A DNA stretch of 64,000 nt from an uncultured Kofleriaceae bacterium (GCA_964617845.1 CAZUAR010000003.1:133908-197907); one strand, 5' to 3'; counted from the first letter of the stretch, positions 29,051 to 33,032 are shown. Notes: a model not told the origin generated them from the letters alone. Translations and numbers: made by a program.

Positions 29051-32023
29051 CTACGGCTTGAGCTTGGCGTCGATCTGGATCGAGCCGTTGTCCGGCCAGA
29101 CGAGATCCTGAACGTACGGCTGGTAGTCCTTCAGGCGGAGCTCCAGCTTTTTCGCGGACGACATGTCGACGCCCTTGATCGTCGTCGGGGTGCGGCCGCG
29201 GACTTCGCCGTTGATCCAGACCTCGGCACCTTCGGGCTGACTGAGGATGATCAGCTTTCCTGTCATGGGGTTGAGCACGGCCTTGATGCTCAGCTCGCCG
29301 CCGCGAGTCGGAATGTCGACGGTCTCCGAATAACGCTCGTGGCGCTTCAGCTCGACCTTGATCGTGTGACGGGTGTTGACGGGGATCGATGGGATCGTGA
29401 GGGGCGTCGTACCTGCGAGTCGCACGTCGTCGAAGACAACTTCCGCCCCCGAGGGGATGGATTCGACATGGATCGAGCCGACGGTCGGCGCCGTCTCGCG
29501 CGTCGATCGGATGATCAGAAACGTTGCCGCGGCGGCCACCGAGATGGCGACGAGGCCAGCGACGATGTAGGTGAACCACCGCTTGCGTGCGGCGCCGAGC
29601 TGGTACTGCGACGGCATCTCGTCCACCTCGAAGAGGCGGAGCTGACCCGTCAGCGTCATCGGCTTCTGCGCGGGCTGCATCGAGTACAGCGCGTTCGGCG
29701 TCACCGGCTGTCCGGGATACTGCTGCTGCTGCGGATATCCCTGCTGCTGTGGATGCTGCGGGTATCCGGGCTGCACCGCATACCCCGGATGCCCCGGCGG
29801 GTAGTACTGCGGCTGCGCATACGGTTGCTGCTGCTGCGGATACGGCTGCTGGTACTGCGGCGGCTGTTGGTAGCCGTACTGCGGTTGCGGCGCGGGCGCG
29901 GCGGGAAGTCCGGGCGGCGTCGGGATCGCGAGCGGCAATCCCGATGCATCGGTCGCGTAGCCGGTCGACGGCACCTGCGGTGGAAACGGCGGCGCTGCTT
30001 GTTGCGCGCCGGGCGTCGCGTGCGGGAACTGCGGTGGTGGCGGCGGCGGCGCGGGCGGTTGCTCGATCGATGGCGCCCGCGGCACCGGCATCGGCTCGCT
30101 CGCTTGCTTCGCGACGATCGCCTGCAGCACGTTCGCCTGCGGAACGCCGCCCTGCGGGGTGCGCTTCGACGGACGCGGCTTGCGCAGCTCGCTCACCGCC
30201 GGCGCGTGAATCTTCGCGGCGAGCGCGGCGGGCGGTGGTTGCGCCGGACGCTTCGACACCGACGGCTTCTTCGGACGAATGTCGCGCGCGATCGTCGGAT
30301 CCTCGACGCCTTCCTCCTCGGGCTCGCCGGTCTGCGTGTCCATCTCATCGTCGGACGTATCCTCGGGATCGGGCGCGACCGGCGGTCCCTCGCTGACCAT
30401 CGTCGCTTCGACCTCTTCGCCCGCGTCGCGCATGAAGTTGCGCATCTGCGCCGGCGTCGTGATCATCGTGCTCTCGCCGATGTTCGCGAGCTCGTCGTCC
30501 GCCGGATCTCCGTGCTCCCACGTCGACGGATCCGCGGAGCTTCCCGGCTGGATCGGCCCGCTGTCCTCGGAGTCCGGAGACGCGGGCGCCGCGTAGTCGA
30601 GCTGCCGCGTCTCGTCGGTCGGCTTTCTCGGCTGCGCGGGACGCGCCGGCGCGACCTTCGCGGCCTTGAGCGACGGGATCGGCGCCGCCGACGCGCCGAG
30701 GTTTCCCGTCGGCGGACGCTGCACCTTGTCGGGCCCGACCGGCGGCGGCGGCTCCGTCGGCGCATGCGCGCGCGTCATGTTGCCCGGCGCACGCGCCCCG
30801 GGCGCCGGCTTCACGCCGACGACCTGCTTGGTCGGCGCCGTCGGGGCGCGCTGCTGGGGAGCATCGGGCGCGCCCGCCTGAGGTTTGATCGACTGCCGCG
30901 GCTGCGCGGGGCCCGATCGCGGCTGCATCGTCGGCTTGCTGTTCGGCTTCAGCTCGTCGACGTTGAAGATGACGCTGTTCTCGTCGCGCAGCTCGTCGCC
31001 CGCGTGCACGAGGTCGTTGGTGTCGAGCGTGAACGTCGCGTTCGCGCCATCGTGCACCTCGATATCGGGGAAGTCGTTATCGTTGTTGATGACGACCGGA
31101 TCGCCGACGATCTGGCGTAGCAGCCCCGAGACCTTCGCCGCCGTGAACACCGGCGAGTACGCGTGCAGGAAGCGCTCGAGGTCGGACGCGAGGTCGCCCG
31201 CGCTCTGATAGCGCTCGCCCGGCACCTTCTGCAGCGCGTGCATCACGATCTTCTCGAGCTGCGGCGGCACGCCCTTGCGCAGCTTGCTCGGCGGCGCGAT
31301 GTCGGCCTTGCGCGCCATGTCGAGCAGCCGATGCAGATCCTCCTCGAGGTAGAGCATCTGCCCCGTGATCATCTCGTAGAGCACGATGCCAGCGCTGAAG
31401 ATGTCCGAGCGGAAGTCGATCGGATCGCCCCAGGCCTGCTCGGGGCTCATGTAGTAGTACTTGCCCTTGATCACGCCGACCGCGGTCTGGCGCGCCTTCA
31501 TCGTCGCCTTCGCGATGCCGAAATCGACGAGCTTGACCTCTCCGGAATAGGAGACGAGCACGTTCTGCGGAGAGACGTCGCGGTGCACGATGCCGAGCGG
31601 CTTGCCGGTGTGATCCTTCTTGCGGTGCGCGTGATCGAGCGCGCTCGCGATCTCCTTCGCGATGAACGCGCAGCAGTCGAGCGGCATCTCGAGATCCATC
31701 TCGGAGCCCTTGCGCAGGATCTTGTAGAGATCCGCGCCGTCGACGTACTCCATCGTGATGTAGTACGTGTCGCCGACGCGACCGAGGTCGAACGTCTGCG
31801 CGATGTTGCCGTGCGCGAGCTGCACCGCGATCTTCGCCTCGTCGACGAGCATCTGGATGAATGCCTCGTCCTCCGCGAAGTTCGGGTGGATCATTTTCAG
31901 GGCGACGTACTTCTCGAAGCCGGCGATGCCCTTCGTCTTGGCGAGGTGGATCTCGGCCATCCCGCCCACGGCGATCTGTCTGACGAGTCGATACGGCCCG
32001 AACTGCCGTTCAGCCATCGCCAT
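29051..32023 (-). CDS. Hanks-type Ser/Thr protein kinase with long Pro- and Gln/Tyr-rich low-complexity region, TM helix and two C-terminal PEGA domains
   Basis: GGMAEIHLA...VALKMI, HRDVSPQNVL, DFG, SPE. Low-complexity stretch QYGYQQPPQYQQPYPQQQQPYAQPQYYPPGHPGY. TM helix WFTYIVAGLVAISVAAAATFLII. PEGA domains IPSGAEVVFDDVRLAGTTP and QPEGAEVWINGEVRGRTP. Confidence 0.9.
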   Translation of the reverse strand: MAMAERQFGPYRLVRQIAVGGMAEIHLAKTKGIAGFEKYVALKMIHPNFAEDEAFIQMLVDEAKIAVQLAHGNIAQTFDLGRVGDTYYITMEYVDGADLYKILRKGSEMDLEMPLDCCAFIAKEIASALDHAHRKKDHTGKPLGIVHRDVSPQNVLVSYSGEVKLVDFGIAKATMKARQTAVGVIKGKYYYMSPEQAWGDPIDFRSDIFSAGIVLYEMITGQMLYLEEDLHRLLDMARKADIAPPSKLRKGVPPQLEKIVMHALQKVPGERYQSAGDLASDLERFLHAYSPVFTAAKVSGLLRQIVGDPVVINNDNDFPDIEVHDGANATFTLDTNDLVHAGDELRDENSVIFNVDELKPNSKPTMQPRSGPAQPRQSIKPQAGAPDAPQQRAPTAPTKQVVGVKPAPGARAPGNMTRAHAPTEPPPPVGPDKVQRPPTGNLGASAAPIPSLKAAKVAPARPAQPRKPTDETRQLDYAAPASPDSEDSGPIQPGSSADPSTWEHGDPADDELANIGESTMITTPAQMRNFMRDAGEEVEATMVSEGPPVAPDPEDTSDDEMDTQTGEPEEEGVEDPTIARDIRPKKPSVSKRPAQPPPAALAAKIHAPAVSELRKPRPSKRTPQGGVPQANVLQAIVAKQASEPMPVPRAPSIEQPPAPPPPPPQFPHATPGAQQAAPPFPPQVPSTGYATDASGLPLAIPTPPGLPAAPAPQPQYGYQQPPQYQQPYPQQQQPYAQPQYYPPGHPGYAVQPGYPQHPQQQGYPQQQQYPGQPVTPNALYSMQPAQKPMTLTGQLRLFEVDEMPSQYQLGAARKRWFTYIVAGLVAISVAAAATFLIIRSTRETAPTVGSIHVESIPSGAEVVFDDVRLAGTTPLTIPSIPVNTRHTIKVELKRHERYSETVDIPTRGGELSIKAVLNPMTGKLIILSQPEGAEVWINGEVRGRTPTTIKGVDMSSAKKLELRLKDYQPYVQDLVWPDNGSIQIDAKLKP

Positions 32024-33032
32024 CCGTTCCCGTCATCGGACGGTCGAACGTGTCGGGGCGATCTTGTCCCGCCGCGGTCTCCGGCGTCGGTCCGACGCGC
32101 AGCGACTCGGCGCCACCGGGATGAACGAAGACACCGACGAGACGCAGGGGCGTCTTCGCGCCGCGGTCGAACGTGCACACCACCTCGGTCGCGATGCCGT
32201 GCGCGACGTTCACGACGTAGCTCGCCGCCGCGTTCGCGACGAGGTAGAGGCCGAGGCCCGCGCCGTACGTCTTGCGATCGATCTGGTTCGGCGACGTGAT
32301 GCACTTCTCGATGTACGCGAGGATCGTGTTCTTCGCGAGGCGCCCGAAGCGATCGCGCACCGCGACCGCGAACTGGTTGTCCGTCGCCGCGTAGCGGATC
32401 GACACCGGGCGCGGCGTCGCGAGGTCCTTGCGGTCGTGCGGATCGACGTTCGCGAAGATCGGCCTGCCCTTGTCGTCGACGGGCGCGTCGTAGAGCGCGT
32501 TCATCAGCAGCTCTTCGCAGACCTGACCGATGGCGCTGCGAACCTGGCGGCGCATCTTCGCGTCCTCGGCGAACTGCAGCACCGTGTCGATCGCGCGACC
32601 GCGGCCCTCGAAGTCGCGCAGTCGCGCGTAGTGCACCGGCGTGCCCGGCGGCAGGTACTTCTCGATGCCGAAGATGTCCCCGGTCAGCAGCTTCTGGGCG
32701 GTGACGAACACGCCGTGGTCGAGCTCCTCGCCCACCACGACGTGGTTCACGCGATCATCGTGCAGGTACGCGGTGAGGTCGGACAGCGTCGCCTTCGGGG
32801 TCACGATGGTGACGTGCGCGCGGTCGCGAAGCTTCGGTACGAGATGCTGGAGCGCCGCGACGTTGCCATCCATCGCGCTGTAAAAGATGTACCGGTGCGG
32901 AATGACGTCACCGGCGATCGCCTCGACACTGCGCACCGCGTCGACCTCGGCCCCCGCTTTTTCGAGCGTGGACACGATGCGACGGAGCTGGTCGAGGTCA
33001 CCCGATATAGCGAGGACGCGTCGTTTCGACAC
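32010..33032 (-). CDS. Receiver-like domain + RsbW/RsbT-like GHKL (HATPase_c) protein, paralog 1
   Basis: GTG start. N-terminal VLAISGDLDQLRRIVSTLEKAGAEVDAV is receiver-like. The C-terminus carries an N-box IGQVCEELLMNALYDA, a G1-like RDRFGRL and a G2 TYGAGLGLYLV. 14-nt overlap with the downstream kinase. Paralog of 50818..51747. Confidence 0.6.
   Translation of the reverse strand: MSKRRVLAISGDLDQLRRIVSTLEKAGAEVDAVRSVEAIAGDVIPHRYIFYSAMDGNVAALQHLVPKLRDRAHVTIVTPKATLSDLTAYLHDDRVNHVVVGEELDHGVFVTAQKLLTGDIFGIEKYLPPGTPVHYARLRDFEGRGRAIDTVLQFAEDAKMRRQVRSAIGQVCEELLMNALYDAPVDDKGRPIFANVDPHDRKDLATPRPVSIRYAATDNQFAVAVRDRFGRLAKNTILAYIEKCITSPNQIDRKTYGAGLGLYLVANAAASYVVNVAHGIATEVVCTFDRGAKTPLRLVGVFVHPGGAESLRVGPTPETAAGQDRPDTFDRPMTGTDGDG

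Follow-up and report, generated by a model that had tools for sequence, protein, structure and literature searches.

Partner-switching modules, in which an RsbW-type serine kinase acts on a STAS protein, and eukaryotic-like (Hanks-type) Ser/Thr kinases are usually held to be separate, and cross-talk between them is scattered. In Mycobacterium tuberculosis, PknD phosphorylates the anti-anti-sigma homolog Rv0516c, which is a Hanks-kinase input into a STAS protein in mycobacteria. Besides the pairs SpoIIAB/SpoIIAA and RsbW/RsbV of Bacillus, the described systems closest to the one reported here include SypE of Vibrio fischeri, an RsbW-like kinase with a receiver and a PP2C domain that targets the STAS protein SypA (PMC10120452). 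We analyzed a stretch of 64,000 nucleotides (nt) from an uncultured Kofleriaceae bacterium (GCA_964617845.1 CAZUAR010000003.1:133908-197907; hereafter the window), which encodes two members of a protein family with a receiver-like domain followed by a GHKL domain (the X family). The gene of the first, X1 (open reading frame (ORF) 32010..33032), adjoins a Hanks kinase with PEGA domains, and the gene of the second, X2 (50818..51747), adjoins its STAS partner Y2 (48548..50818). Kofleriaceae is a family of Myxococcota for which metagenome bins are the main source; the best matches of the window proteins come from this family, and the G+C content across the window is 65-72%.

Our preferred reading, to which we give a probability of roughly 0.55, is that X1 and the PEGA Hanks kinase, predicted to be co-translated in these soil myxobacteria, make up a two-kinase signalling unit at the membrane, with X1 as its soluble subunit. 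It is suggested by the conserved pairing of the two genes, by the conserved residues of the GHKL domain and by the partners to which X proteins are fused or adjacent in other genomes.

The X1 gene cluster

Both ORFs were confirmed on the minus strand, where a sequence-only reading of the window had placed them: X1 at 32010..33032 (340 amino acids (aa), GTG start) and the kinase at 29051..32023 (990 aa, ATG start). A scan with one genome per GTDB species gave 577 relatives, and the synteny of the cluster was taken from the best 80 of these 577, all of them Kofleriaceae-type bins with X1 identities of 73-97%. Such close orthologs are suited to synteny and not to family breadth, which was supplied by a metagenome scan that started from a distant stand-alone X subfamily (80 loci, 29-47% identity). 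The PEGA kinase is located directly 3' of X1 in 79 of the 79 loci with downstream DNA (78 species loci and the window's own contig). The order X, PEGA kinase (648 aa), bactofilin is also kept in a relative that is 39% identical to X1 (P0141, locus L082), in a neighborhood that is otherwise different.

The two genes do overlap, as had been proposed, but the length of the overlap, put at 14 nt, depends on the start codon of the kinase: it is 14 nt in the window when counted from ATG 32023 and 8 nt from the conserved start, ATG 32017. In loci of other species, the kinase start occupies the minus-8 position in 59 of 78, and the two genes are separated by a gap of 0-105 nt, with no overlap, in the remaining 19; besides the window's own contig, a single locus has the minus-14 ATG. 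Because the minus-8 start is kept in 59 of the 78 loci, the predicted kinase most likely begins at ATG 32017, with a length of 988 aa and an 8-nt overlap with X1. The GTG start of X1, a point on which the proposed junction hung, is supported by the orthologs, which open with MSKRRVLAIS (VSKRRVLAIS in the window), and by tblastn alignments that run from residue 1 in most loci.

The partner of X1 had been read as a Ser/Thr kinase with one transmembrane (TM) helix and two PEGA domains, and domain searches agree (Pkinase E=3e-36; PEGA E=4.8e-17 in two stretches). The match to Pkinase (PF00069) covers aa 13-273 with 125.6 bits (cut-off 31.7), and the catalytic motifs K43 (ALKM), HRD147, DFG167 and SPE193 are present. 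The sole hydrophobic segment, residues 816-841, is the TM helix, and beyond it PEGA (PF08308) is matched with 62.1 bits (cut-off 20.8) in two periplasmic domains, 849-990. The linker between the kinase domain and the TM helix (residues ∼300-800, ∼500 residues) is of low complexity, with 20% Pro, 12% Ala and 10% Gln. Its length varies in orthologs, and tblastn matches often end near residue 360-400 or 640-740.

X1 and the kinase, a pair kept across the Kofleriaceae, belong to a tightly packed minus-strand gene string, delimited by third-position GC and ORF structure and composed of the following genes, in the order of their transcription:

35418..37742, minus strand: OmpA-domain protein, 774 aa (Pfam OmpA 9e-10; synteny across related loci)
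33061..35421, minus strand: TonB-dependent-receptor-like outer-membrane protein with Plug and barrel (Pfam Plug 3.2e-15, TonB_dep_Rec_b-barrel 1.2e-17)
32010..33032, minus strand: X1, 340 aa, GTG start (ORF; receiver-like and RsbW/SpoIIAB-type GHKL domains)
29051..32023, minus strand: Hanks-type Ser/Thr kinase, 990 aa from ATG 32023 (Pfam Pkinase and PEGA; TM scan)
27481..28971, minus strand: predicted lipoprotein with lipobox LAALAAC (translation; hydrophobic N-terminal segment 27-49; weak Pfam CarboxypepD_reg-like stretch)
27048..27455, minus strand: bactofilin, 135 aa, final gene in the string (Pfam Bactofilin 1.7e-28)

The stop codon of the OmpA gene and the ATG of the TonB-dependent-receptor-like gene overlap as ATGA, and X1 starts 28 nt 3' of the latter gene. 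A promoter and terminator scan of 26.5-38.5 kb gave no signal above shuffled sequences and was uninformative on the limits of the operon. Most of the 80 related loci have OmpA and TonB-receptor genes 5' of X1, and many have lipoprotein and bactofilin genes 3' of the kinase. The median identities of the related-locus proteins to the window protein are:

kinase domain: 89%
X1: 82%
bactofilin: 81%
TonB-dependent-receptor-like protein: 63%
OmpA-domain protein: 59%
lipoprotein: 55%
TM+PEGA part of the kinase: 52%

Conservation is far tighter in the cytoplasmic parts (X1, the kinase domain and bactofilin) than in the envelope-exposed parts, and the former are a highly conserved trio set against a fast-evolving envelope portion.

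Domains of X1 and the X2-Y2 pair

X1 contains no TM segment and is cytoplasmic. A degenerate receiver-like domain spans residues ∼1-118, the conserved motif GDIFG(I/L)EKYLP lies in a linker at residues ∼119-140, and an RsbW/SpoIIAB-type GHKL domain occupies residues ∼140-305, after which the protein ends. No Pfam or NCBIfam model was matched by X1 above its cut-off, nothing meaningful was found in NCBIfam for X1 or X2, and X2 had no HATPase_c_2 match in the Pfam scan; among longer members of the family, 38 of 71 match HATPase_c_2 at E<1e-3 (best 7.3e-9). Sequence searches of the PDB with X1, the X-family profile and Y2 returned only marginal receiver matches or irrelevant ones, and fold comparison was needed instead. 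The AlphaFold2 model of X1, calculated with 30 diverse homologs, is of high confidence, with a predicted local distance difference test (pLDDT) score of 88.8 and a predicted template modelling (pTM) score of 0.87. The best structural matches of the GHKL part are SpoIIAB and RsbW, which places this Bergerat fold nearest the anti-sigma serine kinases, and the N-terminal domain has a CheY-like (beta-alpha)5 fold.

In alignments of 30 and of 71 diverse members, residues E174, N178 (N box), A183-P184, D227, G230 and the G2 box G257-A-G-L-G261 are invariant in the X family down to 23% identity (the N-box, G1 and G2 positions were placed via the Pfam alignment range). This set of residues fits a nucleotide-binding GHKL site with apparently intact ATP/Mg-binding motifs, of which G1 is DxxG where DxGxG would be canonical. 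Positions 1-120 of the family alignment contain zero invariant or near-invariant residues. In the model of X1, the last residue of strand 3 (48-52) is Ser52, and after strand 5 (95-100) come Gly-Glu and no Lys. X1 has no Pfam match to Response_reg (PF00072), and the acidic pocket, the acceptor Asp and the Thr/Ser and Lys of a receiver were not found in it. Because the receiver half is devoid of invariant residues, strand 3 ends in Ser and no Lys follows strand 5, the N-terminal half of X1 is a pseudo-receiver, which more likely serves in docking or dimerization than as a phospho-acceptor.

The paralogy of X1 and X2, first noticed from blocks of shared sequence, is borne out by BLASTP (E=2e-19, 23% identity across 282 aa, nearly the whole protein length). 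Both blocks are present, the first as EELLMNALYDAPVDDKGRP in one protein and HELLMNAMYDAPVDSQGRP in the other; the second is GAGLGL in X1 but GAGLGM in X2. Searched with the X-family profile, the window contains X1 and X2 as sole copies, and the one other match, a weak one through the receiver part, is an OmpR-type response regulator. X2, its partner and the gene string next to them are:

50818..51747, minus strand: X2, 309 aa, with the two-domain architecture of X1 (BLASTP vs X1)
48548..50818, minus strand: Y2, 756-aa membrane protein (STAS by fold; TM scan)
54092..57137, plus strand: three-gene string coding for proteins of 383 and 208 aa with a cytoplasmic Hanks kinase (55293-56510) between them (Pfam Pkinase 2.2e-32)

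In Y2, a CxxC...CxxC zinc ribbon follows each of two cytoplasmic STAS units, and a TM helix (403-430) and a periplasmic domain come after them. The match of Y2 to Pfam STAS (PF01740) reaches 18.2 bits, below the cut-off of 22.6; two Y2 orthologs have precomputed matches to PF01740 or PF13466, and many are named 'anti-anti-sigma regulatory factor' by the Joint Genome Institute (JGI). The best fold matches of Y2 are SpoIIAA and RsbV, with a SpoIIAA-like fold and a Ser at the start of helix 2. Y2 is therefore a STAS protein by fold, and since SpoIIAA and RsbV are the cognate partners of the proteins matched by X, the pair points to partner-switching logic. In the first STAS unit, the invariant motif KISSFGIREW contains the conserved Ser70, which opens helix 2 in the model and which we take to be at the position of SpoIIAA Ser58 (from its DSSG motif and the model); the equivalent position in the second unit is Glu252.

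The stop codon of X2 and the ATG of Y2 share one base (TGATG), and the same 1-nt overlap occurs in three other genomes (L086-L088), in which the X2 orthologs (306-314 aa, 68-75% identity) occupy the same position. The pairing of one X copy with a Hanks kinase and of the other with a STAS protein, as the sequence-only reading had it, is thus found in both cases as a translational overlap that is kept in other genomes. In these three genomes the three-gene string is directly divergent to X2-Y2 (orthologs of the string 63-84% identical, the kinase 79-84%), and in the window a gene at 51945-54017 (+) separates the two. Its 690-aa product has two CDGSH iron-sulfur fingers in addition to a Ferritin-like and a divergent 4Fe-4S domain. 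Because X2 and the string are direct divergent neighbors in the three other genomes, this gene looks like an insertion in the window. A bactofilin gene is located a few genes 3' of the Y2 orthologs in two of these genomes (L086 9637-10143, L088 9696-10229); a search of the window for a second bactofilin near X2 found none.

Fusions and neighbors in the wider family

An exhaustive profile-free search gave 2033 cluster representatives of the X family at E<1e-3, 156 of them at <1e-30. Representatives of at least 430 residues, mostly 28-40% identical to X1, nearly all consist of an X module (1-325) followed by a TM helix near residue 335, and PEGA repeats follow this helix in 54 of the 71 long members; other fusions carry TPR repeats or PilZ. 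In the X-TM-PEGA proteins, the X module is covalently tied to a membrane anchor of the kind borne by the window kinase. Proteins of this type, ∼715 aa long, come from Kofleriaceae as well, sometimes from the same bins as an X1 ortholog, and because some bins hold both, they are paralogs of X1 and not replacements. The TM+PEGA part of the window kinase may descend specifically from such relatives, to which its similarity is only generic.

In the metagenome scan, a Y2-like STAS gene lies directly 3' of X on the same strand in 34 of the 62 loci that have at least 400 nt past X. These 34 STAS relatives, when aligned, share the motif xINSxGVRxW, with the serine conserved in 34/34. Hanks kinases are found in several arrangements around X. 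In L093 and L131, two Y2-like STAS units are fused to a Hanks kinase domain 5' of X and a single STAS gene follows 3'; the order is X, STAS, kinase in L094 and kinase, X in L168 and L172. In L089, a Myxococcota bin, a small STAS gene and then a fusion of two STAS units with a kinase lie upstream of the X protein P0268, and in L083 such a fusion is convergent to an X-TM-PEGA gene. The fusions, ∼730-810 aa long, have the kinase at the C-terminus and an adjoining X gene, and Pkinase is their sole precomputed Pfam match:

L083, 7952-10390: two STAS units and Hanks kinase
L089, 2795-4996: two STAS units and Hanks kinase
L093, 418-2637: two STAS units and Hanks kinase
L131, 1731-3926: two STAS units and Hanks kinase

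They are the strongest evidence that X, STAS proteins and Hanks kinases act on one another. In five loci of a stand-alone, lower-GC subgroup (L116, L119, L122, L125 and L140), X is followed, with overlap, by the gene of an Omp85/POTRA outer-membrane protein, and in L138 an OmpA/thrombospondin-repeat protein (5294-7162) takes its place. These neighbors are a further link of X to envelope proteins. The suggestion of a modular signalling family thus holds across the 2033 representatives, with TM+PEGA, TPR and PilZ as fusion partners and STAS, STAS-Hanks-kinase, Omp85 and OmpA proteins as neighbors.

Some further arrangements were observed. A complete-looking Kofleriaceae contig (L091, 9145-11318) carries X-TM-PEGA, CDP-alcohol phosphatidyltransferase and Hanks kinase genes in this order on the same strand. 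The window encodes a 396-aa protein with TPR repeats and two PEGA domains (39486-40676, minus strand), and a TPR+PEGA protein resembling it is found in L090, near another X-family member and a Y2-like protein. Elsewhere in the window are an OmpR-type response regulator followed by a HAMP histidine kinase (42660-44790, plus strand), a 1097-aa protein with TPR and CHAT (caspase-like) domains (57863-61156, minus strand), and two ordinary neighbors, a hybrid PAS histidine kinase with a C-terminal receiver (17895-19913, plus strand) and a CLC chloride channel with CBS domains (21894-24155, plus strand).

The proposed signalling unit and known systems

X proteins are predicted to act with Hanks kinases and to be of the partner-switching kind, either as ATP-dependent serine kinases or as binding switches. 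X2 would phosphorylate Ser70 in the first STAS unit of Y2 or bind there in a phosphorylation-dependent manner. For X1, we propose docking to the PEGA kinase on its cytoplasmic side because the canonical STAS substrate is absent from the X1 cluster; through binding or phosphorylation, the two proteins may then exert mutual control, a possibility raised because their overlap is conserved, the pair is retained at 39% identity and fused relatives exist. The PEGA ectodomain would be the sensor of an envelope cue that drives the X1/kinase pair.

Several points weigh against this proposal. A search with a hidden Markov model (HMM) of the family found no Y2-like STAS unit in the 81 X1 loci or in the rest of the window, so that the X1 cluster lacks the canonical RsbW-type kinase substrate. 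Against HATPase_c_2 (PF13581; cut-off 27.4), X1 reaches 15.5 bits, with E ∼0.02 for both HATPase_c_2 and HATPase_c, and its G1 motif, DxxG (D227-x-x-G230), does not match the canonical DxGxG; the catalytic activity of X1 and X2 is predicted. A putative direct contact between X1 and the kinase is suggested only by the gene overlap and by analogy with the fusions. The TM+PEGA parts of the kinase and of the fused relatives share a generic similarity of 25-33% identity. No Hanks kinase was found near X in three sampled contexts. Myxobacterial genomes are dense in Hanks kinases, so proximity in a few sampled distant loci is only suggestive. The output to cytoplasmic targets, for which the co-encoded bactofilin may be an example, is a guess from co-location and matching conservation.

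Of the other explanations, the one with most weight, which we nevertheless regard as unlikely, is that X1 is a classical RsbW-type anti-sigma factor or serine kinase for an unlinked sigma factor and STAS protein, and that the Hanks kinase feeds in, for example by phosphorylating X1 or the STAS protein, with no stable complex. The closest structures, SpoIIAB and RsbW, are both sigma-binding kinases, and if X1 is a STAS kinase, its substrate must be encoded outside the STAS-free X1 cluster; the genome does have STAS proteins, such as Y2 ∼18 kb away. However, there is no sigma factor gene among the scanned cluster genes and their neighbors, X, which has an additional receiver-like domain, is double the size of RsbW, and the overlap of X1 with the kinase is conserved. 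The tethering of X to a PEGA membrane anchor in most of the distant relatives is also a poor fit with the sequestration of a soluble sigma factor.

Next in order is a non-catalytic X1, a regulatory or scaffold subunit that would sense nucleotide, tune or localize the Hanks kinase and perhaps be its substrate. The loss of the receiver acceptor residues, the non-canonical G1 motif and scores under the Pfam GHKL thresholds agree with this, and the 82% conservation of X1 suits an interaction surface. Its likelihood is lowered by the Mg/ATP-contacting positions (E174, N178, D227 and the G2 box), whose invariance down to 23% identity would be unusual in a dead enzyme, and by the paralogous X proteins that adjoin STAS proteins with an invariant phospho-site serine, so that we consider it improbable as well. 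That the adjacency is functionally meaningless operon sharing in one lineage is clearly disfavored and very improbable, for although short overlaps are common in GC-rich operons and 19 of the 78 loci have a 0-105 nt gap, the adjacency holds in 79 of 79 loci at 73-97% X1 identity and again at 39%, and the combination with Hanks kinases recurs in independent members of the family, in different gene orders and as STAS-partner fusions.

The reading of X1 and the PEGA kinase as one membrane signalling unit can be extended, more tentatively and at somewhat less than even odds, to the family: the RsbW-like pseudo-receiver kinase, the zinc-ribbon STAS protein and the Hanks kinases may constitute one phospho-relay or partner-switching circuit of Myxococcota, anchored in the envelope via PEGA, Omp85, OmpA or TonB-receptor partners, in which the X1 cluster would couple the state of the envelope to the bactofilin cytoskeleton. 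The X family could account for how Hanks kinases, in myxobacteria that have hundreds of them, are linked to envelope sensing and the cytoskeleton. It offers a testable substrate site, Ser70 of Y2, and natural fusions that point to the interacting parts, and it would justify the definition of a new domain family.

Neither Pfam nor NCBIfam has a model for the X family, and no publication on it was found; the literature on partner switching gave only general analogues such as SypE. The kinds of components are already known, namely GHKL anti-sigma kinases, STAS proteins, Hanks kinases and PEGA domains. What appears to be undescribed is the receiver-GHKL order and the degeneracy of the receiver, a STAS partner with zinc ribbons, the fusion of STAS units with Hanks kinases, the direct tethering of X to PEGA and the conserved pairing with a PEGA kinase and bactofilin. 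SiaB/SiaC of Pseudomonas aeruginosa is the more remote comparison: the matches are much weaker, SiaC belongs to DUF1987 and is not a zinc-ribbon STAS protein, and there is no diguanylate cyclase here. The SpoIIAB/SpoIIAA and RsbW/RsbV pairs resemble X and Y2 in fold, in the adjacency and overlap of the two genes, and in the conserved serine at the position of SpoIIAA Ser58. Unlike them, X has an additional N-terminal degenerate receiver and a conserved linker motif, its STAS partner is duplicated, membrane-anchored and equipped with zinc ribbons, the scanned neighborhood contains no sigma factor or PP2C phosphatase, and the X1 cluster contains no STAS protein. SypE likewise combines an RsbW-type serine kinase and a receiver in one protein, and its target is a STAS protein and not a sigma factor. 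However, in SypE the kinase precedes a functional receiver and a PP2C domain is present, whereas X proteins have the receiver before the GHKL domain, neither a PP2C domain nor a functional receiver, and links to Hanks kinases and PEGA anchors. PknD and Rv0516c similarly place a eukaryotic-like Ser/Thr kinase and a partner-switching component in one pathway. In the X family, by contrast, this link is gene-encoded, in overlapped genes and in STAS-Hanks-kinase fusions beside an RsbW-like gene, and the two kinds of system are joined at the level of the genes.

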